Origin: Armatimonadota bacterium
GTDB taxonomy: Bacteria > Armatimonadota > UBA5829 > DTJY01
NCBI GenBank assembly: GCA_963663705.1
Contig: OY760504.1
Span: forward strand, 1,538,788-1,602,787
Direction of reading: 5' to 3'
DNA length: 64,000 nucleotides
The stretch's first letter is position 1. Each line of letters starts with the position of its first letter. Below, piece after piece: positions 1-49,346 of this stretch. Position numbers and translations under genes: made by a program. Below the pieces are notes generated by a model. That model made no database searches, was not told the DNA's origin, and saw only the letters and a program-made list of their open reading frames with translations.

Positions 1-40
1 GAGCGAAGTCGAATGGGGTTGGGGTGAGGGCCGAATCTTA
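1..40. repeat. Partial copy of REP-like repeat family X (…GGGGTGAGGGCCGAATC), truncated by the window start
   Basis: ggttggggtgagggccgaatc matches 8854-8873 and 48006-48026. Confidence 0.6.
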
Positions 41-62
41 TAGTCCCAAAAAAAACAAATTG

Positions 63-4368: not shown

Positions 4369-5726
4369 GCAAATGGCGGTGGAAATCACCCAAAATCTAT
4401 CCGACGGCACGCCTGTCAGGGGCTTTTGCGGTAGGTGCGATATGGTTCTTCGCCATGCCATGGGGCGGAAAGCTCTTCATGTGGCTTGGCGCAGGGTACA
4501 ACCTCGCAGTGCTGGCGCTCGCCATACTGGACTACGTCTGGCTTGACGATTCACGTAAGTGCAGTGTCAGCCGTGCGTGCGAGCCGACCCTCTCCATAGG
4601 CGAGAAAAACCCTGTATGGATAACCGTCGCACACACAGGCAGTCGCCCGATGGACGTAATGGTCAAGGATGAGCCACCAATCGATTTTGGGATTTCCACA
4701 CGGTTCCTGGCTACTCGGATTCAGCCGGAAGAGATCATCCGCATGAACTACAAGGTCTCGCCTGCCGAACGTGGGGATTACGAGTTTGGCAACGTGAACG
4801 CGAGATTCAGGACGATGCTCGGCCTGCTCAGCCGGCAGGAGGCGTTTCCGGCCGAAATCAACGTGAAGGTCTATCCGGATATTTTTCAGACGAAACGGCA
4901 CATGCTCTTCTCGCGGGAGAATCGGCTCGCACAGCTCGGGATCCGGCGGAGCAGAATAGTCGGACAGGGCCGGGAGTTCGAGCGATTGCGCGACTACATC
5001 CCCGACGACTCGCCGAGAGACATCGATTGGAAGGCTACCGCGCGCCGTGGCATACTCACGACCCGCGAGTATGACGTTGAGCGCAGCCAGAATATCATGG
5101 TTCTACTGGATGCAGGTCGCACAATGGCAAGCGCGACCGTCGAGCCGGACGGCACGCTTGGCATCACGAAGCTGGACTGCGCCATCAATGCGTCTGTGCT
5201 GCTCGCACACGTCGCGGCAGAGTCGAATGACCGGATAGGCATGTACTGCTTCGCAAAGGGGCCTGTGGCCTTCCTACCTGCCGGGAAAGGGGCATCACAG
5301 TCAACCCGGCTGCTGGATGCGCTGTATCCGTTAAAGCCGAGGATGGAAGAGACGTCTTACTATGACAACTTCATGTTCGTGAGCTACAAGCAGCAGAAAC
5401 GATCGCTCGTCTTCCTGTTTACGGACCTTATCGATCCTGAAGCATCGAAGAATTTGATAGCCAATATAGGGATACTGTCGAGGAAGCATCTGGTTGTGTG
5501 CATAGCCCTCGCCGACTATGAGCTGCCGTCGATAATCGACGGTGTGCCTGGTAAGCCCGCGGATTTGTACAATCAGGCGGTTGCGCTCGGGATTGTTCGG
5601 GAGCGGAAGAAGGCGCTCGCACAACTGTCGAGCCAGGGTGTGATCACGATCGACGCGACACCCGCAGATCTATCTGTGGCTGCGGTGAACAAGTACCTTC
5701 AGTTGAAGCGCGAGGGGCGGCTTTAG
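4365..5726 (+). CDS. DUF58 (vWA-like) protein
   Basis: GREFERLRDYIPDD…IDWKATARR, LLDAGRTM MIDAS-like motif, two N-terminal TMs. Confidence 0.9.
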   Translation: MSKWRWKSPKIYPTARLSGAFAVGAIWFFAMPWGGKLFMWLGAGYNLAVLALAILDYVWLDDSRKCSVSRACEPTLSIGEKNPVWITVAHTGSRPMDVMVKDEPPIDFGISTRFLATRIQPEEIIRMNYKVSPAERGDYEFGNVNARFRTMLGLLSRQEAFPAEINVKVYPDIFQTKRHMLFSRENRLAQLGIRRSRIVGQGREFERLRDYIPDDSPRDIDWKATARRGILTTREYDVERSQNIMVLLDAGRTMASATVEPDGTLGITKLDCAINASVLLAHVAAESNDRIGMYCFAKGPVAFLPAGKGASQSTRLLDALYPLKPRMEETSYYDNFMFVSYKQQKRSLVFLFTDLIDPEASKNLIANIGILSRKHLVVCIALADYELPSIIDGVPGKPADLYNQAVALGIVRERKKALAQLSSQGVITIDATPADLSVAAVNKYLQLKREGRL

Positions 5727-5782
5727 GGACTCACCATAAGTAAAAGCATGCTGAAGCGAGCTGTTCAGGTGTTTTCTACGGA

Positions 5783-5814
5783 ACCTCCCCTGCCCCTCCT
5801 TCGCAAGGAGGGGA
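5783..5814. repeat. CCCCTCCTT-N3-AAGGAGGGG palindromic REP-like element, also a possible terminator between convergent genes
   Basis: acctcccctgcccctccttcgcaaggagggga; same architecture as 47830-47865. Confidence 0.6.
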
Positions 5815-5830
5815 TTTACGAATTCTGCTA

Positions 5831-6832
5831 TTAGCGTCGCGTTGTCAATGGTGTATAGGATGTGCGCCCGGCCATGAACAGATACATGAATTCGACGGTG
5901 CCGACGACTGCGGCGACTATCAGTTTCAGTTGATACGGGACCATGCTGGGGGAGAAGAAGCCCTCGATCAGTCCTGCAACGACGAGCATCGCGCCGACAC
6001 CGATCATGAGCGTGAAGGCTTGACGGCCCGCAAGTTTGAGAGCGTCACCGCGAGTGTAATCGCCGGGGTTCAGGAGCGCCCATCCGAGCATAAGGCCCGC
6101 TCCACCCGCGATGAATATCGCCGTAAGCTCTATGACGCCATGGGGCGCAACAAAGCCCCAGAAGCTCAAGGCGACGTTCAGCCCGCGTGAATTGACTACA
6201 GCGCCTATCACGCCAAGCATCAGGCCGTTGTAGAACAGAAAAAAGATGGTTCCAAGGCCTGCAGCGATACCTGTAGCAAAGGCAAGTATGCTGACTCTTA
6301 TATTGTTAGACATGATGAAGGAAGACATCAACGGTCGCTCTTCTTCCGGCATCCAGTTCTTTTTACCGGTGTGACGCTCAGCTATGGAATCAGCCATTTC
6401 GCCCGCGCCCTGGCCCAGCACCGTGTCGGCCTTGCCGGGGTCTCGGCGGACCTGATCTCCAGCGAAAATCGCGGCGCCAAGGGTTATCAGGAAGGCGATT
6501 AATATGAAAGCCAGGTTTCGTCGGAATGTCTGAGGAAACTCTTCGGCGAAGAATTTGCGGATGGACGGCCACCCTTTCGGCTCTGACACGTAGATATGAC
6601 CGTATGCCCGCGATGCAAGCTGGTTCAAGTATTCTATCTGCGCGTCATCGATCCCCGCACTGCGCGCCTTCGACAGCGCAGACACGACTCGCCTGTAGAG
6701 ATGGCCGAAATCGAGGAGATCGTCGCTATTAAGGCTGCTAAGCCCTTTTGATTCAATCTGATCGAGCATCTGCGAAAGTCGCTTGAAACTATCTTGATCG
6801 TTTGTTTGTATAGTCACTTTTTCACCTGTCAT
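5831..6832 (-). CDS. SpoIIM-like (DUF95) membrane protein
   Basis: FIMSNNIRV, NGLMLG, PHGVIELTAIFIAGGAGL, VAGLIEGFFSP. Confidence 0.9.
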   Translation of the reverse strand: MTGEKVTIQTNDQDSFKRLSQMLDQIESKGLSSLNSDDLLDFGHLYRRVVSALSKARSAGIDDAQIEYLNQLASRAYGHIYVSEPKGWPSIRKFFAEEFPQTFRRNLAFILIAFLITLGAAIFAGDQVRRDPGKADTVLGQGAGEMADSIAERHTGKKNWMPEEERPLMSSFIMSNNIRVSILAFATGIAAGLGTIFFLFYNGLMLGVIGAVVNSRGLNVALSFWGFVAPHGVIELTAIFIAGGAGLMLGWALLNPGDYTRGDALKLAGRQAFTLMIGVGAMLVVAGLIEGFFSPSMVPYQLKLIVAAVVGTVEFMYLFMAGRTSYTPLTTRR

Positions 6833-6846
6833 TTGGAGGTATATTT

Positions 6847-7653
6847 ATGTCTAGAGAGATCGCAATACTCACACCGGAGCATGTCGAGCTGAAATTCGAG
6901 CTGGCCGGCCTCGGATCCAGATTCTTTGCCATATTCCTGGATTCGCTGACGCAATCGCTGTTCGTTGTTGTTGTAGGGATAGTGCTTGTTTCCATATCTT
7001 ACGTTGAACACCTGAACGCTGCCTTATCACGAGAGTTCGACCAGATGTCCCCATGGTTCATAGCATTTATATTATTGCTGTTATTTTCTCTATGGACAGG
7101 ATATTTCCTCTATTTTGAGATCGCAGAAAACGGACAGACTCCCGGAAAGAAATGGGCGGGGATAAGAGTGATCCGAGATTCAGGCCATCCGGTCGATTTC
7201 AGGGCGGCTCTGCTCCGAAATCTTATGCGCTCAGTCGATGTTCTACCTGTCTGCTACATAGTCGGTGCGATATCCATATTCGCAAGTCCGCAGTGCCGTC
7301 GACTGGGCGATTACGTCGGAGGCACACTGGTGGTCAAGACTCGCAGTAAGCAGGAGAGACCGCAGGCACCCGAGACGCTGACGGACACAGTTAATCCAGC
7401 TCAACCCGCCGGCTACTATCTGCCTGACGAGGCGCTGGCGTGTCTCAGCTCGGTTACTAAAGAAGACTACAGGGCTGTGCGCCATTTCCTCGACAGGCGA
7501 TGGGACCTTCAGCCGACTGTGGCCACATCGCTCGCGCTGAAACTCGTGAAACCGCTTGCAGTGAAAGTGCAAATCGATCCCGAGACCATCGGGAATCCTG
7601 TAGAGTTTCTGGAAGGCCTGACGAGTGACTGGGAGCGGCGAATGGTTCACTAG
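6847..7653 (+). CDS. RDD family protein
   Basis: TPEHVEL…AGLGSRFFA…D, GQTPGK…IRV, RN…R.VD, RRLGD. Confidence 0.9.
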   Translation: MSREIAILTPEHVELKFELAGLGSRFFAIFLDSLTQSLFVVVVGIVLVSISYVEHLNAALSREFDQMSPWFIAFILLLLFSLWTGYFLYFEIAENGQTPGKKWAGIRVIRDSGHPVDFRAALLRNLMRSVDVLPVCYIVGAISIFASPQCRRLGDYVGGTLVVKTRSKQERPQAPETLTDTVNPAQPAGYYLPDEALACLSSVTKEDYRAVRHFLDRRWDLQPTVATSLALKLVKPLAVKVQIDPETIGNPVEFLEGLTSDWERRMVH

Positions 7654-8706: not shown

Positions 8707-8831
8707 GCTTGTTCACCTCGATCTTAACTACTTATTATCATACATTTATTGGAGCGCCGGTGCAAGGTCGACAAAGGCGAAGAGTGCCAATTCGGAACTC
8801 AATGTGTAAGCAAGCGTGGAATTGGCGGAAC

Positions 8832-8885
8832 AAAAACGCCCTCACCCGAAATCGGTTGGGTGAGGGCCGAATCAGTGCAATCTTA
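8832..8885. repeat. REP-like repeat family X (hairpin GCCCTCACCC / GGGTGAGGGC)
   Basis: 10-bp perfect stem 8838-8847/8858-8867; about 55 bp near-identical to 47984-48038. Confidence 0.75.
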
Positions 8886-8916
8886 AAAATCATCCACAAG
8901 AAAGCTTATAGGACCA

Positions 8917-11562
8917 CTAATTCTTCGTGATGACACTGAATTCGATGGTAACGATCTCACTGGGACGAACGTCAAGACGGACAGTTCCACGGGAATCAAC
9001 AGCCAGGTTCATAAGGGGTTCCTCGTTCATGTTGACTCTGCGCGCAGATACCGAGCCATTTACTCGAATTTCCGCATCTTTAATCTCGGTGCCGCATACA
9101 TTGTAGAACCTGACTATAAGACTGTCCGTGCCTTCCCCTTGTTTTATGGCGCTCACCACTAGGCTACTCGGCGCTATCTCGATGAAACTATATGACAGCG
9201 GCAGAACACCATAGTGCGCCCCAGTCTGGGCACATATGAAAGGTGTGTTGAAACTGCCCGCCTCAGCCCACACGCGGGCGTCGCCCCAGCTGCCTGCATG
9301 CGGAAACACCGAATATTCTGACGTATGCTTGCCGATGCACTGAGCCCCTGGTGTTGGTATCACACCGGCGGTATCACCGCTTCCGCTTAAGCACCCGACG
9401 CATCTAAGCAGGGTGACCGCCACCGTTCTCGATTCGTCGTCGTACACCTCGTATTCAGGGAGACCCTTGTTCAGCACGGCAAGCCCCTTCTCGCCATCGT
9501 TCACATCCATCCACGATTTCTGGGGAAAGAATGTGGACGCACCCTGCCAATCCGAAGGAGGTCGAATCGAACGGGATACCACATCAAACGGCATCTCTGC
9601 ATGCGACACATCGGTTTTTACCCCTGACGGGAAGACTGCCCTCAACCTGTGATCTTTCGCTAAATTCTCGATCTCGGTCACTACGTCGACCCTGCTCGAC
9701 TTTGCGCTCAATGTGAACCGGCTCGTAACAGGGCATGCTACCGTTTCATACGATCGGCTGAGTTGGTCAGGGGTAGCAGATACAGGAATATTAAGGACGG
9801 ATTTACGTACAATTGTGGCAGATATCGGACTGTTGTCTATTATGCGAATCTCTGCATTATCGCTCGCAGTAGTTATCACCGTATCCTGTTCGGGTTTACC
9901 ATACCTGTATTCGTCCCCGACATCCCCTGCGTCTTCGAGCGCGCAGATGTTATCGAACGCACAGGCACCGTCATTGCTCTTTATGGAAATGCCGCCATTC
10001 GATATGCCCACTTCCAAATATTCGTTTGATATCTTCCCATCACCGATCGTGAGCCCTGCCACAGCGCGATCGCACTGACACGCAGAATCCACCGGTTTCA
10101 CCGTGTACGTCGTGTATCCGCATGACGGCACATTCTCAGCGATGAACTCTATGGTAAACTTTCGGGTCATCGCTGACATCGGTAGTTCTACCGGCGAATA
10201 GATACTCTTTGCGTAAATGACACTTTCAAGAAGCCTGTAAGGTACGCTACCGCCATCGGTATCTATCAGTTCGATTGCTTGCACATCAAGCGAATCGTCC
10301 ATCTGTGGGGCCTCCCTGGAGTTTTCACCAAGCTTAAACTCGATCTCGGCAATTACGCGTTCCGTTCGCACCCAGCTCAGCGGATTGAAGACGACCAATG
10401 TTTCGCCTTTTGTGCCGATCTGCGATGATATATGTGAGAGGCTCCGATCCGTCAACTCGCGCGCGATCTGTTCGACTTCGTCGAAACGGGGCATCATCTC
10501 TGCATGCACCTGATCTATGCTGCAACCGCATATAGAGTCGTGAGGATGGTTTTTCATCAGGTGTTTCCATGCGTAGCGAAGCATATCGCGCGGATACTCG
10601 GCGCCTGCCATGCTGGCAAAAGCACATGAAGGTTCCGTGTACTTCTCAAGCCACGTTTCACACTTCACGTTTGCCTGCTTTATGTACATCCTAGCCGATA
10701 GAGTACCGGCCAATACATTGCCATCACGGTCCTCACGCAACTCACCCTCCACCCGATTAAGCTTAAGGCCCTGCGTATCTATGCAATTTTTGACAGCCTC
10801 TATATACGCTGGAAAAGTGGTATGGACGAGGTGAACATCCCCTGCTGCCTCGTTCACCCGGCGGATGATATCTCCTACATCGCCCTGTGCCTCCAGATGA
10901 TCGACTCCGTTCATAAGGAGCAGTTCACCGGTTACTGTGTGGGGCGACATCTTTTCGCTGATGGATTTAGCGTACTCAATGGCCGCCGCCGTATCATTCG
11001 GAAAGCGCTGGGCATTGTTGTACCAGAATGCCATCAGCGATGCCACGACCTCCGACCCGTCAGGACTGGCCCAGATCATCTCCATCTTGTCATCGTCGCA
11101 TGCGAGCTGCTTGCCGCGGCCGAAGATCACTCCGTCGATCCCAAAACCTCTGAATATCTGGGGCATTTGGGAGATATTGCCGAACTGATCCGGGAGATAA
11201 CCAACTTTCATAACGCTCCCGAAATCAGCTGCAATCCTGTGACCGATAAGGAGGCTCCGAATCGTGGATTCTCCGCTGACCAGGTTTTCGTCATTCAACT
11301 GGTACCACGGCCCCACGAGTATCCGACCCTCGCTAATGTACTTTCTAAGCTTGGCCTCATTCTGCGGCTTTATTGCCAGGTAATCCTCAAGGACTATGGT
11401 CTGTCCATCCATGTTGAAGTACTTGAAGTCCGGTTCGTTATCCAGTATATCAAGCAGATGGTCTACGAGATCGACCAATCGTATTCTAAACTGTTGGAAT
11501 GTAAGATACCATTCCCTGTCCCAGTGTGTATGCGATATTACGTGCAGGTTATTCGTTTCCAA
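8917..11562 (-). CDS. GH38 alpha-mannosidase (MngB-like)
   Basis: HVISHTHWDREWY, GPWYQLNDE, GYLPDQFG, NGVDH, KNHPHDSICGCSID, VTLLRCVG. Confidence 0.92.
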   Translation of the reverse strand: METNNLHVISHTHWDREWYLTFQQFRIRLVDLVDHLLDILDNEPDFKYFNMDGQTIVLEDYLAIKPQNEAKLRKYISEGRILVGPWYQLNDENLVSGESTIRSLLIGHRIAADFGSVMKVGYLPDQFGNISQMPQIFRGFGIDGVIFGRGKQLACDDDKMEMIWASPDGSEVVASLMAFWYNNAQRFPNDTAAAIEYAKSISEKMSPHTVTGELLLMNGVDHLEAQGDVGDIIRRVNEAAGDVHLVHTTFPAYIEAVKNCIDTQGLKLNRVEGELREDRDGNVLAGTLSARMYIKQANVKCETWLEKYTEPSCAFASMAGAEYPRDMLRYAWKHLMKNHPHDSICGCSIDQVHAEMMPRFDEVEQIARELTDRSLSHISSQIGTKGETLVVFNPLSWVRTERVIAEIEFKLGENSREAPQMDDSLDVQAIELIDTDGGSVPYRLLESVIYAKSIYSPVELPMSAMTRKFTIEFIAENVPSCGYTTYTVKPVDSACQCDRAVAGLTIGDGKISNEYLEVGISNGGISIKSNDGACAFDNICALEDAGDVGDEYRYGKPEQDTVITTASDNAEIRIIDNSPISATIVRKSVLNIPVSATPDQLSRSYETVACPVTSRFTLSAKSSRVDVVTEIENLAKDHRLRAVFPSGVKTDVSHAEMPFDVVSRSIRPPSDWQGASTFFPQKSWMDVNDGEKGLAVLNKGLPEYEVYDDESRTVAVTLLRCVGCLSGSGDTAGVIPTPGAQCIGKHTSEYSVFPHAGSWGDARVWAEAGSFNTPFICAQTGAHYGVLPLSYSFIEIAPSSLVVSAIKQGEGTDSLIVRFYNVCGTEIKDAEIRVNGSVSARRVNMNEEPLMNLAVDSRGTVRLDVRPSEIVTIEFSVITKN

Positions 11563-15451: not shown

Positions 15452-16147
15452 CTACAATCCACTCCACATAACGCCGTTGCCGTTTGCATCAATATCGATC
15501 AATGGGGAAACCATCTTCATCCATTTGACATGGCCGTCTACAAAGGCCACATTCGCTCCATCACTGTGCCGGGTAGCCATGCTTTCTTTGTATGTTCTAT
15601 TAGCATCCAATGCGCCCCAGCCTGGTGCGCAGAAATATGGTTCCCACGCAACAGCAGTCTTATCGATAAAACAGCCGGTACTCGAAGCGTCACGGATCTG
15701 GCTCAACGTTCGAGGCACACCATCACCGGCAGGCTGCCCATACAATAATTGATGTGCCAGATACAATCCGTTATAGCCATAGCTAGCGTATGTGTACCCG
15801 CCAGCCTCTATCTGAGGCCCCGAGGAAGCAGTTGGATCCGAGGGGCACATGTTAATTTTCACATTTCTCAGATATGGATCCAGCAGCGGCTTATGGCTGG
15901 CAAAATCTATGATGTAATCCATGCGACCTCCTGTAACGGCGACCAGGAGTGGGCACGTCTCGTCATAATCCTGCGTGTACATTTGCCAGGCAACCATTAT
16001 CTGTTTCAGATTACTCTGGCAACTTGCCTGCCTTGCCTTATCTCTGGCTTTCGCGAACACCGGGAAGAGTATAGCCGCAAGAATAGCTATTATAGCTATA
16101 ACTACTAGTAACTCGATCAGAGTAAACCCTCTTCTGCTTTTCATCAT
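15452..16147 (-). CDS. Prepilin-type N-terminal cleavage / DUF1559-like protein with H-X9-DG C-terminus
   Basis: [31 protein letters not shown]; [17 protein letters not shown]; GGAGG RBS. Confidence 0.92.
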
Positions 16148-16232
16148 AACCCTCCACTGCAATTAATTATAAGTTACAGACACCGCATTCACGGCTAACA
16201 TACCTTGAGCAAAATGACATCTACAGGTTTTT

Positions 16233-22903: not shown

Positions 22904-25750
22904 ATGAACAAGCAATACACCATGCACGTAATATCCGGAACTCACTGGGACAGGGAGTGGAGATACTCGGCAGAACAGTCCAAGCTCAGGCTGGTAGATC
23001 TGATGGACTCAGTTCTCGAAATTCTGGAACAAAAGTCTTCTTTCCGATCGTTCTGTATCGATGGCGGCATGGTGGCTGTTGAGGACTATCTGACACTCCG
23101 GCCGGAAAACAATGCAAGGATCAAAGCGCTGGTTGAAAATGGAAAACTCAAGTTGATGAGCTGGTACACGCTCCCGGACATGTTCACAGTTTCGCCGGAA
23201 TCCATAATCAGAAATATCACACTTGGCCGTCAAATGGCTAACAGTTTCGGCGGAGCCATGGCTGCCGGCTACACGTCATGCTCTTATGGACAGACTTCAC
23301 AACTACCTCAGATATACCGCGGGTTTGGAATAGATACAGCGCTGTACTATAGAGGCACAAACCAGTATGAATTGCCCTCACTCTTTTTGTGGAAGGGGAT
23401 GGACGGATCAGAACTGCATACGGTCAGAACATTCGATGACATTACAAGGGCCAACTGGTATTTCAACGTGCATTATCCACTCGTTTTGGGCAAGGACTTT
23501 CTGGATCTTTCATACAAGTTCAACAAAAACGAGCAACCATGCCATCTTTGTGACGGAGAATCTTATGAACGCCCATTTGCCCTGCTGCACGAAGATGGCA
23601 CGTTCAAGAACGATGCGGCATCCCTGAAGAAGGCTCTAGATGCCATAAGGCGCCATGCAGAACCCTTTGCGATAGGAAGGCATATGCTTGCGCTGAATAT
23701 AGAAGACAACGCTCGCCCTTATGAGCCTATGCCCGAAATTATAGACGCACTTAACGCTATCTCCCCGGATATCGATATCGTACAGAGCAGCTTCGATGAG
23801 TACTTCAGCGCCATACTGGGTGACCACGGAAATGACGACCTGTTTGTACACAACGGAGAAGCGCGTTTCCCCGGCGTAGCACCCGGATTCAACGGGCTTT
23901 ACGGTGCCACGCATTCGTCGAGAGTGAAATTGAAACTGATGAACGATAAGGCGGAAACGGCTCTCATTAATTTCGCAGAACCACTCGCTTCCATAGGATC
24001 AAATCTGGGCTTTGAATACCCGGCATCGGCACTGGCACGTGCATGGAGAGTCCTGCTTCAGAACCATGCGCACGACAGTATTTGCGGCGCCGCAATAGAT
24101 CGGGCCCACGAGGATATGATCTACAGATTCTCAACAGCAGAAACGGTCGGGCTTGAAGTCGCTGCGCGAAGTCTTGCCTTCCTGCAATCCAAAATAGATA
24201 CGGCAAGCCATTTTTCAGGTTCCGACTACACAATTACATTTTTCAACACGCTGGCGGTCGAACGCGATGAGATCGTCCAGATAGTCGCCGACATTCCTGA
24301 ATGCACGGACATGGAGCATTTCGACATCGTTGACGAGAACGGCAACATTGTTGAACATAAGATTCAAAGCGTCGACTCAGCCCGCGTTGCAGTCGAAAGG
24401 GAGCTGGACACATCGACATGGTTTTCGTCACGGCGCTGGCGAATTCTAATTCGAGCCCGTGTTCCCGCCATGGGATATACAACATACGCCATCAGACCAA
24501 GAAAGCCAGTGCTCATCGAGCATCCAATTTCCACAGAGCGCAAGCTTATCGCAGGTGCAGGCGGAACCCTGGAAAACGAACATATGAAGGTGCAGATAAA
24601 CAGCAACGGCACATTCAATATATACTCGAAGGACACGGGCCGTGAGTTCCGCAATCTCCACTATTTCACCGATTACGGCCAGACCGGATCTGCCCATTTG
24701 AGCGTCACTCCCCGGCGAAACCCGGTGGTGACAAGCCTTGGAGGCAGCGCCGACATTATAATGGAACAATCATCCACACTGAGAGGAGAATACCGCATCG
24801 ACCTCTGCATGCGTATTCCGGCTGCAGCCACTCAGGATAACGGCGACAGACTAAGAGAGATGAAAGATCTTCCAATATCTACACGCCTCATCCTGGACAA
24901 AGGATCGAAGGTGCTCAAAATCAAGACCCGTCTTTCAAATAGTTCAAGAGATCACAAACTGCAGATTAACTTTCCGACGTGCGTGGACACGAACTTCGCC
25001 GTTGCAGAGAGCGCTTTTGCCATCGAAAAACGGGACTTCCGGTGGCGGGAAACGGGCGACAATCTGGAGGAGTGCTACACATTTCAGCCCATGATGAATT
25101 TCGTAGACATAAACGATGGCCAAATCGGCCTGTCATTTCTTTCAAAAGGACTTAGAGAATACGAAATAACCGATGATCCCGATAGAAATCTTGCAATTAC
25201 CCTGTTGCGCACCCATCGTGATTACATGACGGCAAACAGGGAAATGAATCCCGATGAACTCGATCGCTATACCGGTATGCACTCATTCGGCGATTTCAGT
25301 TACGACTATGCGCTCTACCCGCATGCCGGTGATCACGTTGATGCCGACACTCTGCATACAGCCTATGCACATAAGATCGGCATCAGAGCAGTTCAGGGCA
25401 TACCTCACCCGGGCGATCTCCCATGCAGTGCAAGTTTTTTCACCGTGAAGCCGGCAGACAAAATAATGGTATCTGCACTGAAGCAGTCGGAAGATAGAAG
25501 TGGCACAATCCTCCGATTATGGAACATGAGCGGCGAGAAACTGAAGGCATCAGTGAAAACTTTGCTACCGCTAGAATCAGCTACAAGAGTTCGCATGGAT
25601 GAAACCATAATAGAGCCCTTGCCATTCGAAGGTGGAATATTCAGTCTGAATCTGGAGCCGCATAAAATCGAAAGCATTCTGTTAACGCCGTATGGGCAGA
25701 GCGATGAAGTCGAATCAAAATATGGGATGGATGGGAGAAAGCTCAATTGA
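22904..25750 (+). CDS. GH38 alpha-mannosidase (second paralog)
   Basis: HVISGTHWDREWRY, SWYTLPD, QNHAHDSICGAAID, AITLLR. Confidence 0.9.
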   Translation: MNKQYTMHVISGTHWDREWRYSAEQSKLRLVDLMDSVLEILEQKSSFRSFCIDGGMVAVEDYLTLRPENNARIKALVENGKLKLMSWYTLPDMFTVSPESIIRNITLGRQMANSFGGAMAAGYTSCSYGQTSQLPQIYRGFGIDTALYYRGTNQYELPSLFLWKGMDGSELHTVRTFDDITRANWYFNVHYPLVLGKDFLDLSYKFNKNEQPCHLCDGESYERPFALLHEDGTFKNDAASLKKALDAIRRHAEPFAIGRHMLALNIEDNARPYEPMPEIIDALNAISPDIDIVQSSFDEYFSAILGDHGNDDLFVHNGEARFPGVAPGFNGLYGATHSSRVKLKLMNDKAETALINFAEPLASIGSNLGFEYPASALARAWRVLLQNHAHDSICGAAIDRAHEDMIYRFSTAETVGLEVAARSLAFLQSKIDTASHFSGSDYTITFFNTLAVERDEIVQIVADIPECTDMEHFDIVDENGNIVEHKIQSVDSARVAVERELDTSTWFSSRRWRILIRARVPAMGYTTYAIRPRKPVLIEHPISTERKLIAGAGGTLENEHMKVQINSNGTFNIYSKDTGREFRNLHYFTDYGQTGSAHLSVTPRRNPVVTSLGGSADIIMEQSSTLRGEYRIDLCMRIPAAATQDNGDRLREMKDLPISTRLILDKGSKVLKIKTRLSNSSRDHKLQINFPTCVDTNFAVAESAFAIEKRDFRWRETGDNLEECYTFQPMMNFVDINDGQIGLSFLSKGLREYEITDDPDRNLAITLLRTHRDYMTANREMNPDELDRYTGMHSFGDFSYDYALYPHAGDHVDADTLHTAYAHKIGIRAVQGIPHPGDLPCSASFFTVKPADKIMVSALKQSEDRSGTILRLWNMSGEKLKASVKTLLPLESATRVRMDETIIEPLPFEGGIFSLNLEPHKIESILLTPYGQSDEVESKYGMDGRKLN

Positions 25751-30653: not shown

Positions 30654-31772
30654 CTAGGGGTGCAACACAATCATCGTTCGATTTATACCGGCACGCCCGT
30701 TCTCCACGCCCCAGTACGTTACAATGACGTTTCTTTCGTCCAGCCTGATTGCGGATGGTGCACCGAACTGAAAGCCCGTCACTGCATAATCACTCGTAGT
30801 GATCGCATTCTCTGTTTTGACTTCAGGTGACCATACCTCGGCATCGAAGACTGTTACCCATCGATCGCCATTGATCTCTGCGATCTGTGCCCTCACACCT
30901 ACAGGCGCCCGCCTGTGTCCATAGACGAAAAGTATCTGGTTACCCCCCAGCCATAATGGCCAGCCTGTTTGTCCCATCACCGGAGATACGAGCGGGACCG
31001 ACCAACTGTTGCCGCCATCATGACTGATTGAGTAGTGATTTGGCAGATCTTCGTCGGAACTCCATTCGTGAGCCCAGCAGGTAGCAAGCATGGTATCGCC
31101 TGCCATCTGTATTACGCGTCCTTCCCAGTAACCGATTCGATTCATGGGATCGTAGAATATGTCGGTCGGTTTGCTCCAACTGTTGCACCCATCCACAGAC
31201 CTTGAAACGCAGATTCTATGTCCGAAAGGAAGCACACCATCCCACTGCCTCCATGTTGAATAGGAAAGCATGTTGGAACCGTCCCTGAGAGACATCATGC
31301 CTGTAGGCAATTCGAGTGGAGAAGGAAACGGTTTCGGGAGAATTCGTGCGGCAGACCATGAGCGCCCGCCATCCGAAGAACGGCGCAGCACGATCTGATT
31401 ATCACGCATGCCCACAGATTGTGGATCAACTAGCGGCAAGTCGGGATGTGCCGGATCGATTGTCCATCTGGCGCCCAGGCACATGATACTGCCGTCGGAG
31501 TCCAGGCTGATGAATCCTGTTTCTGTCGGCGGAAGTTTGCCAGTACGATTGGCATCGACCGGTCCCTCAAGTAACCAGGAGACGCCTCCATCAGTTGATC
31601 GGGCCAGCACTGGATGGCTATCCGGTGTCTCCAGGGCTTTTCCGGCAACAAATGAGGCCAGCAGTTCGTCTTCGCCAAGATGAACGATACGCGGATAATA
31701 TCCTTGAAGGCCCGACACGCTGCGATACACGGTGCCACTTTCCATAATATTGAAGCATCCAAATTTCTGCAT
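30654..31772 (-). CDS. Sialidase-like BNR/Asp-box beta-propeller, no signal peptide
   Basis: Four Asp-boxes: STDGGVSW, SSDGGRSW, SVDGCNSW, SHDGGNSW. Confidence 0.75.
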   Translation of the reverse strand: MQKFGCFNIMESGTVYRSVSGLQGYYPRIVHLGEDELLASFVAGKALETPDSHPVLARSTDGGVSWLLEGPVDANRTGKLPPTETGFISLDSDGSIMCLGARWTIDPAHPDLPLVDPQSVGMRDNQIVLRRSSDGGRSWSAARILPKPFPSPLELPTGMMSLRDGSNMLSYSTWRQWDGVLPFGHRICVSRSVDGCNSWSKPTDIFYDPMNRIGYWEGRVIQMAGDTMLATCWAHEWSSDEDLPNHYSISHDGGNSWSVPLVSPVMGQTGWPLWLGGNQILFVYGHRRAPVGVRAQIAEINGDRWVTVFDAEVWSPEVKTENAITTSDYAVTGFQFGAPSAIRLDERNVIVTYWGVENGRAGINRTMIVLHP

Positions 31773-31838
31773 GCTGGTTCCCCCATATTCTAAATAACTC
31801 AGAGCAGTATAAAGAAGCATATGTCCTTAAGTATTTAC

Positions 31839-32132
31839 GGCTCTATAAGCTTTCTTGTGGGTGAATCTGATTCGCCCTCACCCCTACCCCCGATTTCGGG
31901 CGAGGGGGGATGCCGCTTATCCCTAGTAGTCCACAGGGCATATCGAGGGACGGTACATGTCTGCCAGGCTTCGGCAGCGGCGTCTTCGACTCTGCAACCG
32001 AAGCATCAACACACCCGTGAAGGGTGTGCCTACATCTAGTCGGCGCAGGCCGACTTAGTGTTTTTGTTGACGCGAATTTATTCGCACGGTTGTTGGAACA
32101 CTACCGCTATCCACAAACTTTCTCATAGAGCC
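31839..32132. mobile_element. MITE copy 1 (294 bp), ISL3-type ends
   Basis: Imperfect ~24-bp TIRs GGCTCTATAAG…GTGGGT / ATCCACAAA…CATAGAGCC; 8-bp TSD GTATTTAC at 31831-31838 and 32133-32140. Confidence 0.9.
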
Positions 32133-32475
32133 GTATTTACAATCAGGCAATCGGAATTCGTGCGATTTCATATACCTGGACCGATGTCACGACAGAGTGC
32201 TCTGAGCGCTTATGCAAACAGTATAGCAGGGGCTACCGGAAACATCAAGCCCTATTTTGCAGAAAGTGTATTTCCGCTTGCACGAATAGATGTCTGCCAC
32301 CAGGCAGGAGGAACTCCTCGCTTTCTATGATATACTATAAGAACACTCAGGGAAGATCAGGACAAACAAACTAATCGAGCGAATCTTCATAGTGGTGAGA
32401 TGGATAACCTGGCGTGATCTCCGCCGTATTCAAGGATTTCGATAAGCGCCGTGAATTCAATTTCACACAAAAGTC

Positions 32476-32526
32476 TTGACACCCCTGCAGGCGAGTGCTA
32501 CAATACACACAGAGTGCTATGAGCAC
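32476..32526 (+). promoter_or_regulatory. Sigma70 promoter of the FadR gene with downstream palindromic operator
   Basis: TTGACA 32476-32481, 17 bp, TACAAT 32499-32504; GTGCT-ATG-AGCAC 32514-32526. Confidence 0.75.
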
Positions 32527-32553
32527 CGATGCAATCTCTGGAGGTACCAACCC

Positions 32554-33240
32554 ATGTTGTCGCCAGTGGACCGACAAACGCTCTCTCAACAAGTATTGAA
32601 TAAACTACAGCAGTACATCATGGCTAAAGGGCTGCGTCCCGGAGACCGCCTGCCTGCTGAGCGCAAACTGGCTGTAGACCTGGGGGTAAGTTGCAGCACA
32701 ATCCGCGAAGCATTGAAACCTTTGCAGGCGATAGGAGCCGTATCCAGGATGCCGCGAGGGTCTGTGCTACAAGAGGTTGATTTCAGAACGCTGGCAGGAA
32801 TTTCCCGTTTCCTGATGGTACAGTCGCACGATGACCTTATGGAGCTATCCATCGCACGACAATGGCTTGAGACTAACATGCTTCCAATGGTTGCCGAGAA
32901 CTGCACCCCCGAACAATATACTCAGCTGGAAGACGCTAACCGGCTCATGGAGGCAGAGATAAACTCTGGCCAACTCGGTATTGATGGGGATGCCGCTTTT
33001 CACCAGACTCTTCTGGCTGCCACCAACAACAAGTTTCTACAGCAGTTTGGCGGCCTGATTCAGGAGTTTTTCATCGAAATACGCACCGTGCTGTCAATGG
33101 ACGAACAGAAGGCACGGAAGGCGCTGGACGATCATTGCAAGTTGGTTGAATATCTGCATGCCGGTGACGTGGAACGCGCTAAGTTGCAGATGCATGACCA
33201 TCTTTCCGAGTATATCCAGTCGAGTCAAGACGGCAGCTAA
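32554..33240 (+). CDS. FadR/GntR-family regulator (FCD domain)
   Basis: PGDRLPAERKLA…VSCSTIREAL; ARQWLE, DAAFHQTL; GGAGG RBS at 32540. Confidence 0.92.
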   Translation: MLSPVDRQTLSQQVLNKLQQYIMAKGLRPGDRLPAERKLAVDLGVSCSTIREALKPLQAIGAVSRMPRGSVLQEVDFRTLAGISRFLMVQSHDDLMELSIARQWLETNMLPMVAENCTPEQYTQLEDANRLMEAEINSGQLGIDGDAAFHQTLLAATNNKFLQQFGGLIQEFFIEIRTVLSMDEQKARKALDDHCKLVEYLHAGDVERAKLQMHDHLSEYIQSSQDGS

Positions 33241-33428
33241 GTCATGAGCGCAAATGCTGATAAAGCGTTAATAATCATATCGTTCTAGCTTTCTTTATTT
33301 TACAGATCGGAGGTGGCTAACTTATCTTTTATCTATGTACAATTGCACTAGACTGACAGACCTGTATGAATCACGGCAATATCTACTGATGAACGCTTTC
33401 GATTACAACAAAACCGGAGGTTAAGAAG

Positions 33429-34085
33429 ATGAGAAGAAGAGGGTTTACGCTTATTGAACTGCTAGTTGTAATTGCTATAATTGCAATTTTAGCTGCCATA
33501 CTGTTCCCCGTCTTTGCCAAGGCGCGAGAAAAAGCGCGACAGGCTTCCTGTCAAAGTAACTGCAAACAAATCGGCCTTGCGTTGTCCCTGTACATTCAAG
33601 ACTATGATTCAACATATCCAGCCGGAAGATCAGCTGGCAATTGGAATGGACAATGGATTAAGTTAGGACCTTACGGTCTAAAACTGGGACCTAACGCTCT
33701 CCTGGTTTGCCCCAGTGACTCCCTTGCAGTCACACGTCAATATCCTCAAAATTGCAGTTATGCAGCCAATATGGCTGGAGATGATGCCAAACTCACCTGG
33801 GGTGCGGGATATGGATTGTGGGATTGGTGGACTGGTGCGGCACGAACGGAATCCGATGTCACCATGCCTGCAGAGACGGCATACGCTATGGATGCCAATT
33901 GGGATTACGTATATGTGCTGGACGCAACTACCGGTTGGACAGATCCATCGACACTGGGTCCTGTCTACGGTGCGTTTGGCGTAGCATCCCGGCATAGCGA
34001 CGGTGTGAACGTTGTATTCTGCGATGGTCATGTAAAATGGATAAAAACACCTCTTAAAGCCGAGTTAGGCTTGGCAAAAAGATAA
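33429..34085 (+). CDS. Prepilin-type / DUF1559-like H-X9-DG protein (second paralog)
   Basis: [39 protein letters not shown]; [17 protein letters not shown]. Confidence 0.92.
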
Positions 34086-34475
34086 GTCCCCAGGTTATCA
34101 TATGATGGGATTACGAGTTTGCCTCTTTATGCAAGCTTGTAATCCCATCAAGTGCTACTCAGCAATCTGTAATATCATCTACACAATCAATGTACCAAAG
34201 GTAAGAGCATCTTCCCAAGCGACTTATGCGCTGTTGAAGATGCTCTATCTTATTATTCAGGATGTAATTCGAATACCTTTTCAACCCCGGCACAACTTAC
34301 ATCACCTGAAGCTGATCTCTGAGATGGCCACACACTGCTGTCATCTTCGTTCGTATGTTGCAGCACTATCCCCATGCCTGAAGCGGCAGATCGATCTTCT
34401 GATCATTGGTCGACAGGAAATGCCCATCTGCGGCGAAAAAAGCAAACTCCGTGTACTTCCTGCCCTTCTCCATGA

Positions 34476-35398
34476 CTACTTGCAGAGCCTGATCCTGCGC
34501 TGGCTCGGGAAATACTCCGGATTCAAACCATAGGGATGAATGGCCGCCGAATCAGAGTAGAGATCACCGCCGAGTTTGAGAAGCAAGTTCTCGACGTAAC
34601 TGATATCGCTGCCTGCCGGACCGGCCATGCTGACAGGGATCTTAGGTTCGTTCCAAATCTCAAAGGCGTTTGGCAAATTCACGTGCGTGCGCCGTATACG
34701 GCAATATCGGGTGGATATGTACGTCGTGCCCACTGATCAATAATCTCTGGAGAGGCCGTACTTGCCCAGGATGTCCCGTAGGCTAGAACAACTAGCGTCT
34801 CCTCCTTATGCTTACGATACAGCGCCATAAGTTTATCGGCTCTATAAGCTTTCTTGTGGGTGAATCTGATTCGCCCTCACCCCTACTCTCTCCCGATTTC
34901 GGGCGAGGGGGGATGCCGCTTATCCCGAGTAGCCCGCAGGGCATATCGAGGGACGGTTCATGTCTACCAGGCTTCGGCAGCGGCGTCGTCGACTCTGCAA
35001 CCGAAGCATCAACACATCCGTGAAGGGTGTGCCTACATCTAGTCGGCGCAGGCCGACTTCGTGTTTTTGTTGCCGCGAATTTATTCGCACGGTTGTTGGA
35101 ACACTACCGCTACCCACAAAGTTTCCCATAGAGCCAGTTTATCAAAGCCAGCCCAGTTTGCTTTGGATTCTTTGGTGGGCTGAATCCCAAGCATCACCAG
35201 TTCGTACATTATTAAGTCCCATTGCCTTTACAAATTCGAGCTCTCGTTATAGATGGGCTAATCATAGCGCTCAGTCTGGATGCCAAATGCCCCACTCAGT
35301 GTAAGCGGGGCACCGGCAACTGCCATTGAACTTATCCCCATACATATCGCGCCAAATGTGATACCCATTATGCCGGCACCGATATGTTTGAGATTCAT
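34476..35398 (-). pseudogene. Degenerate secreted clan GH-A (GH5/GH39-like) glycoside hydrolase, split by MITE copy 2; 3' limit uncertain
   Basis: RBS plus signal peptide at 35398, then fragments in shifting frames: ELEFVKAMGLNNVRTGDAW, IQPTKESKANWAGFD|KLMALYRKH…LAYGTSWA…YPP, FEIWNEP, AAIHPYG. Confidence 0.7.
34838..35135. mobile_element. MITE copy 2 (298 bp), ISL3-type ends
   Basis: Same TIRs and interior as copy 1; 8-bp TSD AGTTTATC at 34830-34837 and 35136-35143. Confidence 0.9.
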
Positions 35399-45510: not shown

Positions 45511-45537
45511 AATAAGACAACTTCATAATCGATAATA

Positions 45538-45627
45538 TATACGAGGGAGCTCATGTTATGGGCTGAGAGTGGACTATAAGCACCAGACCTCTAGACCTGA
45601 TCGGGATAATGCCCGCGTAGGAAGTAC
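45538..45627 (+). ncRNA. TPP riboswitch aptamer
   Basis: GGGAGC…GGCTGAGAG…ACCTGATCGGGATAATGCCCGCGTAGGAAG directly upstream of thiS. Confidence 0.93.
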
Positions 45628-45630
45628 TTC

Positions 45631-45666
45631 AAAGCACACCTAAACGCGGGTGTGCTTTTTTTGTTT
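45631..45666 (+). terminator. Riboswitch expression-platform terminator
   Basis: aagcacacc / ggtgtgctt stem plus U-tract. Confidence 0.85.
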
Positions 45667-45684
45667 GTTAGGGAGGTGAATCAA

Positions 45685-45885
45685 GTGCGCGTTTACGTTA
45701 ACGGCAAGGAATCGGACGTCGCCGAAGGGTTGACAGTGGCGGCGATGGTGGCCGAAAAAGGCCTAAGCCCCAATGCGGTAGTAGTGGAGCATAACTCGGT
45801 CATACTGCCGACCGAAAAGTGGCCGCAGTGTGTGCTCGCGGCCGGCGACAAATTAGAAATGATAACCTTTGTAGGAGGAGGCTAG
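45685..45885 (+). CDS. thiS: Sulfur carrier protein ThiS
   Basis: VNG start, C-terminal ITFVGGG; GGGAGG RBS. Confidence 0.95.
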
Positions 45886-45889
45886 TGTT

Positions 45890-46669
45890 ATGTCAGATGT
45901 ACTAAAAATCGGCGGCAGGGAGCTTACCAGCCGTCTATTCCTGGGGACCGGCAAGTTCGCATCCAACAAGATAATCCCTGAAGTGGTATCCGCGTCCGGG
46001 GCGCAGGTGATCACCGTAGCGGTAAGACGTGTGGATACGGCTTATGCCGAGGAAAATATCTTAACTTATATCCCAAAGGATCGTGTTCTCATGGCCAACA
46101 CATCAGGCGCTCGAAACGCCGAGGAAGCGGTGCGTATCGCTCGGCTGGCGAGAGCTGCCGGATGCGGCGACTGGATCAAAATCGAAGTCATTTCCGATAA
46201 CCGCTACCTGATGCCGGACAACTTTGAAACCATCAAAGCGACAGAAATCCTTGCGGCTGAAGGTTTTGTCGTGCTGCCATACATGAGCCCCGACCTGATG
46301 TCTGCAAGACGGCTTGTCGATGCCGGGGCGGCGGCGGTCATGCCTCTTGGCGCTCCCATCGGCACTAACAGAGGGCTGAGGACCACAGAGCTTGTTCGCA
46401 TTCTAATTGAAGAAATCCCGCTGCCCGTCATAGTGGATGCCGGTATCGGCAGACCGTCGGAGGCCGCAGAGGCGATGGAGATGGGCGCCGCTGCTGTGCT
46501 CGTAAATACTGCGGTGGCAACTGCGAGCGATCCTGTTGCCATGGGCAGGGCCTTCGGCATGGCGGTCGATGCCGGACGTATCGCATACCTTTCCGGTCCT
46601 GGCGCGGTTCAACAGTATGCGAGCGCATCGTCGCCCCTGACCGGATTCCTGTCCGAGCAGTTCCAATGA
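45890..46669 (+). CDS. thiG: Thiazole synthase
   Basis: [37 protein letters not shown]. Confidence 0.97.
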
Positions 46670-46687
46670 GCATGAGGAATAAAGATT

Positions 46688-47788
46688 ATGAGCTTTTTTG
46701 AAATAGTCGAACAATACCAGGCTTTCGATACAGGCGCCTTTTTCAGCCGTGTAACAGAGGCCGACGTCCGCCGGGCGATCGGTGAAAACCGGCTCACGCC
46801 AATGGACTATCTGACACTCCTCTCGCCCCAGGCGGAAATATACCTGGAGGAGATGGCCCAAAAGTCTCACCGTCTGACCGTGCAGCATTTTGGGCACACC
46901 ATGCAATTATTTACGCCAATGTATGTAGCCAATCACTGTGTGAATCATTGCCTGTACTGCGGTTTTAACACCAACAACAATTTGCACCGCACCAAGCTCA
47001 CGCCAGGCGAAGTTGCAGATGAGGCCAGGATTATCGCTTCCACAGGGCTTAAGCATATCCTGCTCCTGACCGGGGAGTCTCGGAAGCATTCGCCGGTGTC
47101 ATACATCAAAGACTGTGTGGAAGTGCTCAAGCGCTACTTCACCTCCATAGGTATCGAGATCTACCCGCTCAAAGAGGAAGAGTACATCGAACTGGCAGAC
47201 GCAGGGGTGGATGGACTGACAATGTTTCAGGAGACGTATGATCGTGATGCCTACGCATATCTTCATCCAGCCGGGCCCAAACGGGATTATCGATTCCGCC
47301 TGGATGCTCCTGAACGAGGCTGCCGGGCACGGATGCGCAGTGTAGGTATAGGCGCCCTATTGGGATTAGCCGACTGGAGACGGGAAGCCTTCCTGACAGG
47401 GCTGCACGCCGACTACCTGCAGCGTAAATATCCGGATGTTGAGCTGAGCATCTCGCCGCCACGCATGCGCCCGCACCTTGGGGGCTTCCAGGCTGAAATC
47501 GACGTTACCGATAAAAACCTTGTCCAGTATGTCACTGCTATCCGGCTGTTTATGCCGAGATGCGGTATAACTCTGTCATCCCGCGAGGCACCCGCTCTCC
47601 GCGAAAAAATGACCAAACTGGGCGTCACAAGGATGTCGGGAGGTGTCTCCACAGCAGTGGGCGGTCGCTCGCACGGCGACGAGACCGGCCAGTTCGAGAT
47701 CGCGGACGAAAGGTCTGTGGCAGAGATGGCGAAGATGCTTTATACCCTTGGATGCCAGCCGGTATATAAAGACTGGCAAGCCATATAG
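46688..47788 (+). CDS. thiH: 2-iminoacetate synthase (radical SAM)
   Basis: [31 protein letters not shown]. Confidence 0.95.
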
Positions 47789-47829
47789 AACTCAGATTGG
47801 GATGAGGGAAGATTGTCTGGAGTTACAGA

Positions 47830-48038
47830 TCCCCTCACCCCGGCCCTCTCCCACAGGGAGAGGGAGTGGCGTCGAGCCGTTATTTTGATGCTTCGGTTGC
47901 AGAGTCGAAGACGCCGCTGCCGCAGCCTGTAGACATGTGCCGTCCCTCGATATGCCCTGTGGGCTACTCGGGATAAGCGGAGCAAAAACGCGCTCGTCCG
48001 AAATCGGTTGGGGTGAAGGCTGAATCAGTGTAATCTAA
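47830..48038. repeat. Composite repeat cluster inside the thi operon: CCCTCTCCC-N3-GGGAGAGGG element, MITE-interior core (reverse orientation), family X
   Basis: 47885-47980 is the reverse complement of MITE interior 31913-32009; no TIR or TSD. Confidence 0.85.
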
Positions 48039-48054
48039 ACCAGGGGGAAATGCA

Positions 48055-48702
48055 ATGAACGAATTCGAACAGGCGTTGAGTCGTTATTTAAGTGAGGAAC
48101 AGCTGAATAAGATACGAACGGTGAAGGTCGGGATCGCAGGAGCTGGGGGGCTCGGCTCGAACTGCGCCACGGCCCTCGTGCGCACCGGTTTTCGGCACAT
48201 CAAAATCGCCGACTTCGATGTAGTGGACTACAGCAACCTCAACCGGCAGTTCTATTTCCACAAGCAGGCAGGAAAACCTAAAGTCGAGGCGCTGAGAGAG
48301 AATCTCAACCTGATCAACCCTGCGGCAAACATAGAGATTGCCCCAATCAAACTAACAGCAGATAATCTGGCTGAGTTTTTCGCCGCCTGTGACGTGGTGG
48401 TGGAGGCTTTTGACCGAGCGGAGTACAAAAAACTTATCGTTGAAACCTTCATAGGCTCGAACAAACTGCTGGTGGCTGCTTCGGGGCTCGCCGGATGGGG
48501 AGACAGCGATCGGATAAAAGTGCATCGGATGAAGGATAATTTCTACCTTATCGGCGACCTATCCACCGGCATCGGGCCCGGCATACCGCCGTTGGCCCCA
48601 TGTGTGTTCATCGCGGCCGCCAAACAGGCCGATGTGGTTTTAAGCTATGCTCTGGGTACCCTGCAAGGAGGCGCGGAAAGATGCGACATCGACAGAATCT
48701 AG
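48055..48702 (+). CDS. thiF: ThiS adenylyltransferase (short ThiF type)
   Basis: GIAGAGGLGS, DFDVVDYSNLNRQ, VEAFD. Confidence 0.92.
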   Translation: MNEFEQALSRYLSEEQLNKIRTVKVGIAGAGGLGSNCATALVRTGFRHIKIADFDVVDYSNLNRQFYFHKQAGKPKVEALRENLNLINPAANIEIAPIKLTADNLAEFFAACDVVVEAFDRAEYKKLIVETFIGSNKLLVAASGLAGWGDSDRIKVHRMKDNFYLIGDLSTGIGPGIPPLAPCVFIAAAKQADVVLSYALGTLQGGAERCDIDRI

Positions 48703-49346
48703 TCAACTTTCTGTCCACCGATATCTACGGCATCACGGCGGACCAATACTCTCGCGGGCGCGGCAACGTCGAGACTGTGCGGCTGATGATAGAGGCCGGT
48801 ATCAAGGTCATCCAGTACCGGGAGAAGGACAAATCTGCTCGGCACATGTACGAGGAGTGCCTCGCTATCCGGGAGCTTACCAGAAATGACGGCGTTACCT
48901 TCATTGTGAACGATCGCGCGGATCTGGCCGTTGCCGTGGGCGCAGATGGCGTTCACGTCGGACAGGACGATCTGCCGCCGAAGAAAGTGCGCCAAATAGT
49001 CGGGGATGAGATGATTATCGGTCTCTCCACCCACTCGCCGGCACAGGCGCAGTCGGCCGTGAGCATCGGCGGTATCATCGACTATATCGGTGTGGGCCCG
49101 ATCTTCGCCACGAGTACCAAGAAAGACGTCTGCGAGCCGGTGGGGCTTGAGTATCTCGAGTATGTCGTCAACAATATCAGTCTGCCCTTTGTGGCTATCG
49201 GGGGCATCAAGGAACACAACATCGGGCTTGTACGCGGCGTGGGAGCCGGGATCATCTCGCTGGTGACCGAGATTGTGGGGACTACTGACATATCGGCGAA
49301 AGTGAGATCGATAAGGTCGGAGTTGAACTGCGCAGCAAACGGCTAA
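48681..49346 (+). CDS. thiE: Thiamine-phosphate synthase
   Basis: IQYREK, FIVNDRADLA, GVHVGQDD, IIGLSTHS, FVAIGGI. Confidence 0.95.
   Translation: MRHRQNLVNFLSTDIYGITADQYSRGRGNVETVRLMIEAGIKVIQYREKDKSARHMYEECLAIRELTRNDGVTFIVNDRADLAVAVGADGVHVGQDDLPPKKVRQIVGDEMIIGLSTHSPAQAQSAVSIGGIIDYIGVGPIFATSTKKDVCEPVGLEYLEYVVNNISLPFVAIGGIKEHNIGLVRGVGAGIISLVTEIVGTTDISAKVRSIRSELNCAANG

Follow-up and report, generated by a model that had tools for sequence, protein, structure and literature searches.

Insertion sequences (ISs) of the ISL3 family are already known to mobilize MITEs (miniature inverted-repeat transposable elements) that carry 8-nt duplications, as described for a 187-nt MITE of Microcystis aeruginosa PCC 7806 (PMC11448079). 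We analyzed a 64,000-nucleotide stretch of DNA from an Armatimonadota bacterium (contig OY760504.1, positions 1,538,788 to 1,602,787; hereafter the window), which holds two full copies of an element that invites comparison with the Microcystis MITE and opens no new class of mobile element. Like its cyanobacterial counterpart, the element is short and non-coding, has ends that begin with GGCTCT and match those of ISL3 ISs, is flanked by 8-nt duplications, exists in tens of copies or more, folds into stem-loops, and occupies both intergenic and genic sites (PMC11448079). It differs in having no sequence similarity to that MITE, in the extent of its matching ends (~25 bp rather than 9 nt), in its length of 294-298 bp, in its higher apparent copy number, in its host phylum, and in the cassette organization of its centre (PMC11448079). 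At a probability of about 0.85, we consider the element to be a non-autonomous, ISL3-derived MITE whose ends come from a 1297-bp ISL3-family IS.

A second class of repeats is relevant to the interior of the element. Repetitive extragenic palindromes (REPs) have a 5' GT[AG]G, a downstream palindrome, a high extragenic copy number, and a flanking gene for a REP-associated tyrosine transposase (RAYT) (PMC3686654, PMC3116915). The MITE is similar to REPs and to REP doublets forming hairpins (REPINs) in that it is high-copy extragenic DNA with short G+C-rich palindromes, one of which (hairpin d) has a 5' GTAG foot (PMC3686654, PMC3116915). Unlike the MITE, REPs are devoid of terminal inverted repeats (TIRs) and 8-bp duplications; they also exist free and as inverted pairs in their hundreds, and they border a RAYT gene, and none of these was seen in the window for the hairpins of the MITE (PMC3686654, PMC3116915).

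By using a repeat finder and BLASTN across the window, we found that the two full copies are direct repeats with 94% identity (Table 1). Each is bracketed by its own perfect 8-bp target site duplication, GTATTTAC for copy 1 and AGTTTATC for copy 2, and the chance of such a flank match is ~1.5e-5 per copy. Both ends of the MITE start with GGCTCTAT and form imperfect TIRs of ~25 bp, wherein 17 of 24 positions match by eye between the left and right ends of copy 1. Copies 1 and 2 are distinguished by a 4-nt indel that is located in the loop of the second hairpin. Open reading frames (ORFs) lying wholly inside a copy are spurious and reach at most 72 aa, and a protein search with one of these yielded no homologue. 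A search of the MITE against Rfam, both at gathering thresholds and at E <= 10, returned nothing meaningful, and no tRNA was found. Likewise, the interior 20-mer CAGGGCATATCGAGGGACGG gave 0 matches in JGI metagenomes and viral contigs, the TIR pattern gave 0 matches in viral contigs, and the whole MITE had no match among plasmids and phages in a distant blastn mode. The element has features by which MITEs are recognized, being short (<~600 bp) and non-coding, with TIRs, copy-specific target site duplications, and many copies. The original prediction for this DNA, which was made from the letters alone, had described two like-oriented copies of ~295 bp with imperfect TIRs, a non-coding interior, and different 8-bp duplications indicative of independent transposition. 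The copies, their ends, and their duplications are as it described, no protein or Rfam family matches the element, and independent transposition of both copies is supported.

A degenerate pattern of both MITE ends was then used to scan genome and metagenome collections. The pattern occurs at 18 loci in GTDB species genomes, mostly at contig ends of the uncultured metagenome-assembled genome (MAG) CAYSLA01, as is typical of an IS with multiple copies, and in 32 metagenome contigs. A complete IS bounded by both ends is 1297 bp long in L029, L034, L053, L054, L055, L057, and L059, and 1298 bp long in L047, and in each case a single ORF of ~412 aa fills nearly the whole element. Both the zinc ribbon (PF14690) and the DDE domain (PF01610) of ISL3 are present in the encoded transposase. 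The C-terminal 62 aa scored 50.1 bits in a Pfam scan against a cut-off of 23, and a 74%-identical relative from an Armatimonadota MAG is labelled an ISL3 family transposase. The left end of the MITE corresponds to the right inverted repeat (IRR) of the IS and the right end to its left inverted repeat (IRL), with 22-25 of 25 positions identical. Thus, the assignment to ISL3 in the original prediction holds, and the transposase with the same TIRs that it proposed to look for exists outside the window, in metagenomes and MAGs.

The MITE and the 1297-bp IS are alike in both terminal repeats over ~25 bp and in their AT-rich 8-bp targets. The IS in L059 is flanked by the perfect 8-bp AT-rich duplication TATATCTT, and IS flanks are generally AT-rich, as are the MITE targets. 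Unlike the IS, the MITE has no transposase gene and no shared interior: no similarity to these ISs was detected beyond ~25 bp at either end, and this pair of ends is the sole link of the MITE to an autonomous element. Note that the right ends of the two copies (32108-32132 and 35111-35135) differ at three positions and that each matches a different IRL variant, that of L034/L053 for copy 1 and that of L029 for copy 2. These variants could reflect separate subfamilies or correction of an end from an IS.

To estimate copy number, we used summed unitig k-mer depth in five public runs (X1-X5), seemingly from metagenomic samples, in which the 3.78-Mb genome of the window, a contig of 3,780,622 bp, is present. 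The summed depths of MITE and flanks were 930-1480 versus 8-10 in X1, 3200-6900 versus 26-41 in X3, 140-180 versus 2 in X4, and 140-300 versus ~3 in X5. The ratio of MITE to flank depth is ~50-200 in the five runs and MITE depth scales with genome depth; because this ratio is kept over a 15-fold range of genome depth, it fits roughly 10^2 copies in the genome. Extrapolation from two full copies per 64 kb to 3.78 Mb agrees with a value of ~10^2. The further copies expected by the original prediction are thereby found, both as this 50-200-fold depth and as two or three partial copies that accompany the two full ones in the window. Depth was used only for the overall order of magnitude because the X1 and X3 profiles disagree, and copy numbers for individual modules were given up. 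Short-read contigs break at the MITE ends, such that the 2.7 kb between the two copies is a separate contig.

When the L029 IS was placed on the runs, a relative with ~82% identity was present in X1-X4, having one left flank common to three runs. The depth of this relative compared with that of the genome was 6.6 versus 8-10 in X1, 3.8 versus 6-7 in X2, 31.7 versus 26-41 in X3, and 2.9 versus 2 in X4. This near single-copy depth fits one autonomous copy serving many MITEs, and the ~100 copies seem to rely on an autonomous partner that is itself present about once. From the shared ends, we infer mobilization in trans and the origin of the enzyme: an ISL3 DDE transposase produced from another part of the genome would bind both ends of the MITE and would move the 294-298-bp unit into AT-rich 8-bp targets, with duplication of the target each time. 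Repeated rounds of this process could have raised the number of copies in the 3.78-Mb genome to around 100.

Several observations weigh against this reading. The depth estimate is rough, since overlapping unitigs inflate the sums and other strains could hold some of the copies. No joint that skips a whole copy, which would represent the empty allele called for in the original prediction, was seen in X1-X6, though this is a weak test because the runs seemingly all hold the same strain. The complete ISs in L029 and L034 lack a duplication, which may result from chimeric joining of multi-copy repeats in assembly. Neither a full-length ISL3 element nor an ISL3 gene lies within the window, the IS of the runs could not be linked to the window's own genome, and no intact transposase from the 3.78-Mb contig was among the best 120 matches. 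Apart from these points, none of the six transposases P0005, P0006, and P0008-P0011 was traced to the runs holding the window genome, and tblastn of the window proteins against the Armatimonadota MAG locus L057 revealed no close synteny.

The interior of the element is highly structured. All six palindromes listed in the original prediction were found in both copies, and the RNA folding that it recommended gave a structure far beyond chance, with a minimum free energy for the + strand of -124.8 kcal/mol compared with -93.1 +/- 5.0 for 200 dinucleotide shuffles (z = -6.4), none of which was as good. The minus-strand fold behaves like that of the + strand. All copies seen share the outer parts: on the left, the left end, hairpins a and b, and the block 31913-31953; and on the right, the stretch from hairpin f to the right end. 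In the centre (~31954-32098), at least 10 different joints in the public runs skip 42-134 nt, some with replacement letters, and each joint is at about single-copy depth. Conserved alternative continuations are present in the centre, one of which is GTAG-CC-GCAGGC-TTTAT-GCCTGC. Alternative hairpin cassettes are thus a feature of the centre of this MITE family, and possible routes to them are palindrome slippage or deletion, recombination between subfamilies, and insertion of small elements. Of the 'mosaic of hairpins' that had been proposed, the part that stands is a centre that varies with cassettes, while a RAYT/REP origin of the hairpins is unsupported. Enterobacterial bacterial interspersed mosaic elements (BIMEs) and pneumococcal BOX elements also have conserved outer and variable inner hairpin modules, as in the MITE. 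Unlike the MITE, BIMEs and BOX have no IS-type terminal repeats or target duplications, and we know of no DDE partner for them, whereas such a partner is evident for the MITE.

Table 1. Coordinates of the MITE copies, their modules, and related features (window positions), with matches of the MITE ends to ISL3 ISs.
Feature	Position	Strand	Details
MITE copy 1	31839-32132	+	294 bp
MITE copy 2	34838-35135	+	298 bp
Target site duplication, copy 1 left	31831-31838		GTATTTAC; identical to 32133-32140
Target site duplication, copy 1 right	32133-32140		GTATTTAC; perfect 8-bp duplication
Target site duplication, copy 2 left	34830-34837		AGTTTATC; perfect 8-bp duplication
Target site duplication, copy 2 right	35136-35143		AGTTTATC; perfect 8-bp duplication
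Left terminal repeat, copy 1 (matches IRR)	31839-31863	+	22/25 versus L029, L034
Right terminal repeat, copy 1 (matches IRL)	32108-32132	-	24/25 versus IRL of L034 and L053
Right end, copy 2	35111-35135		25/25 versus IRL of L029
Left ends, both copies			22/25 versus IRR
Hairpin a	31863-31873		both copies
Hairpin b	31874-31909	+	CCCTCACCC ... GGGCGAGGG; one A.C mismatch
Left core	31913-31953	+	same-length block in copies 1 and 2 and 48-kb fragment
Variable central zone (hairpins c, d, e)	31954-32098	+	42-134 nt skipped or replaced in other copies of public runs
Hairpin c	31968-32004		both copies
Hairpin d with CCTAC	32010-32033		minus strand reads GTAG-G-CACACCC-TTCAC-GGGTGTG, REP form
Hairpin e	32038-32055		both copies
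Hairpin e with TAGTGTTTTT	32038-32065	+	resembles intrinsic terminator; copy 2: 35041-35068
Hairpin f	32072-32085		both copies
Partial copy without TIRs (48-kb fragment)	47879-48036	-	MITE ~21-177 (a, b, core, c); 85% identity; nhmmer E = 1.6e-46
Left-end fragment (8.9-kb fragment)	8818-8915	-	TIR-like degenerate GGTCCTATAAGCTTTCTTGTGG, hairpin b, T-run; nhmmer E = 2.6e-11
Possible fragment	5-55	-	GGGACTATAAG-ATTCGGCCCTCACCCC; weak, E = 0.21; cut by window edge
Separate palindrome	47831-47869		35-39 nt; CCCCTCACCCC-GG-CCCTCTCCC-ACA-GGGAGAGGG (CCCCTCACCCCGGCCCTCTCCCACAGGGAGAGGGAGTGG); adjoins MITE remnant

Three other explanations were weighed. The most serious of these, which we nevertheless regard as unlikely, is that the element or some of its copies or fragments were co-opted by the host as a terminator, an insulator, or a structured RNA, such that conservation reflects function. 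The strong fold of the MITE is in keeping with this proposal, as is the terminator-like score that hairpin e and its T-run obtain on the + strand of both copies. A T-run also lies 3' of hairpin b in the 8.9-kb and 48-kb fragments. In the former, a perfect 9-bp G+C hairpin (CCCTCACCC/GGGTGAGGG) and its T-run lie in sense orientation directly 3' of the stop codon of a GH38 gene, and the latter is oriented within a thi operon such that no terminator is on the sense strand. However, the differences among the three copies, as we read the alignment, break stem pairs and are never compensated (for example, stem c has T>G in the 48-kb fragment, and stem d has C>T in copy 2), and thus there is no sign of selection on structure. 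The MITE has no Rfam match, the terminator of copy 1 faces nothing because this copy is between divergent genes, and terminators in the region are not above the number in shuffled sequences (5 versus 3.8 +/- 1.8). Under the favored MITE reading as well, we infer that some of the hairpins with T-runs, which resemble intrinsic terminators, may act on neighboring genes. The fragment at 8818-8915 is the most plausible case, and it may have been taken over as the terminator of GH38. Far less probable is a composite transposon that moved as a unit, made up of both direct copies and the intervening 2.7 kb, which encodes a GntR/FCD regulator and a prepilin/DUF1559 protein. Like-oriented copies do bracket a small gene set, but each has its own matching 8-bp duplication, which contradicts this model, and different sequences border the pair on its outer sides (GTATTTAC on the left and AGTTTATC on the right), contrary to the pattern that a composite insertion leaves.

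The original prediction had also held that the MITE collected and spreads HUH-type REP modules. Specifically, the hairpins would be REPs belonging to a RAYT (HUH/Y1) system, having either inserted into or been picked up by a DDE-spread MITE, and we judge this to be very improbable. The exchangeable cassettes of the MITE centre would suit such a history, and on the minus strand hairpin d reads as GTAG followed by G and a 7-bp palindrome, while the alternative cassette quoted above, from other copies, also begins with GTAG. The GT[AG]G foot is present on hairpin d and on this one alternative cassette, but not on hairpins a, b, c, e, or f, and we estimate that a 4-nt motif would be found beside one or two of ~seven hairpins by chance in ~5-25% of cases. 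Moreover, hairpins d, e, and f (allowing <=4 mismatches for d) are restricted, within the window, to the two MITEs, so the free occurrence that was anticipated is not seen for them. Sites with GT[AG]G and a perfect hairpin are not enriched (4 in the window versus 5.1 +/- 1.9 in shuffles), k-mer counts reveal no other repeat family in the 64 kb, and no Y1_Tnp domain, as would mark a RAYT gene flanked by the internal REPs, was found among the 50 window ORFs scanned against Pfam. The shorter MITE pieces in the window keep several modules in MITE order and are therefore read as decayed or truncated MITEs and not as free REPs. A last point in favor of REP cargo is that hairpin b of copy 2 shares its order of motifs with the separate palindrome at 47831-47869, which in X1 and X3 has ~100 times the depth of its flanks, sharp edges, and many different G+C-rich flanks. 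In the runs, however, these flanks are ~70% G+C compared with 51% for the genome, and a similar motif is present in the unrelated locus L045 (82-102), so the depth of the palindrome probably derives largely from other organisms. This palindrome is probably a widespread REP-like motif. It is very doubtful that the variable middle, with at least two hairpins that have a GTAG foot, is a docking zone for inserted or exchanged REP-type hairpins. If it were, a DDE MITE would be in physical linkage with HUH/RAYT repeats and would carry REPs to new sites.

The ISL3-derived MITE described here documents an abundant ISL3-driven family in a poorly studied uncultured lineage. Its points of interest are the high copy number, the precise match of its ends to the IRL and IRR of an IS from uncultured bacteria, and the cassette zone, and the variable middle offers a small, concrete case for how MITE interiors diversify. 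Such families break short-read assemblies, as in the Logan contigs and the MAG CAYSLA01 examined here. They also insert beside promoters and inside operons, and can donate terminators to their neighbors.

Other sequences related to the MITE or its partner were encountered. Several contigs from X1, X3, X4, and X5 match only rightwards from the start of the left core (31913 in copy 1, 34916 in copy 2) and have dissimilar AT/purine-rich letters before the match; these could represent copies truncated at the 5' side or a relative of the MITE family that lacks TIRs. Three solo IRR-terminal fragments of ~170-190 nt in CAYSLA01 (L004 1-470, L019 7482-8000, and L020 1351-1600) each encode the last ~60 aa of the ISL3 transposase followed by unrelated sequence. 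We considered these as MITEs and rejected them because there is no second end nearby; truncation of copies or chimeric assembly may explain them. A solo IRR-like end of the same IS family is also located within a 157-nt spacer in a MAG of Capsulimonas sp. (Armatimonadota) (L011 5692-5715), again with no second end nearby.

Regarding the surrounding genes, copy 1 occupies the spacer that separates a BNR-like ORF (30654-31820, minus strand) from the divergent GntR/FCD regulator gene, 18 bp upstream of the ATG of the former, and copy 2 lies within 1.3 kb that has no recognizable gene. An interpretation in which copy 2 interrupts a glycoside-hydrolase pseudogene, based on an NEP motif and an 80-aa ORF across the rebuilt empty site, was dropped for want of Pfam or PDB support. 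Directly 3' of the stop codon of the prepilin/DUF1559 gene is a 27-nt inverted repeat (34096-34157) with 81% complementarity and an 8-nt gap. This gene (33429-34085) and that at 15452-16162 encode paralogous prepilin-type N-methylation/DUF1559 proteins with near-identical N-termini, and a contig from the latter locus cross-maps on the former.

The 48-kb remnant sits in the 266-nt spacer between thiH and thiF, which it occupies together with the 47831-47869 palindrome. A thiamine pyrophosphate (TPP) riboswitch (65.7 bits) controls the operon (45533-49346), in which it precedes thiG, a thiH-like radical-SAM gene, thiF, and thiE. The GH38 gene next to the 8.9-kb fragment (8917-11562, minus strand) and that at 22904-25750 encode paralogous alpha-mannosidases in a carbohydrate-use region, each with a regulator having GntR and periplasmic-binding domains nearby, and this region also encodes GH130, GH4, BNR, and PEP-CTERM proteins.

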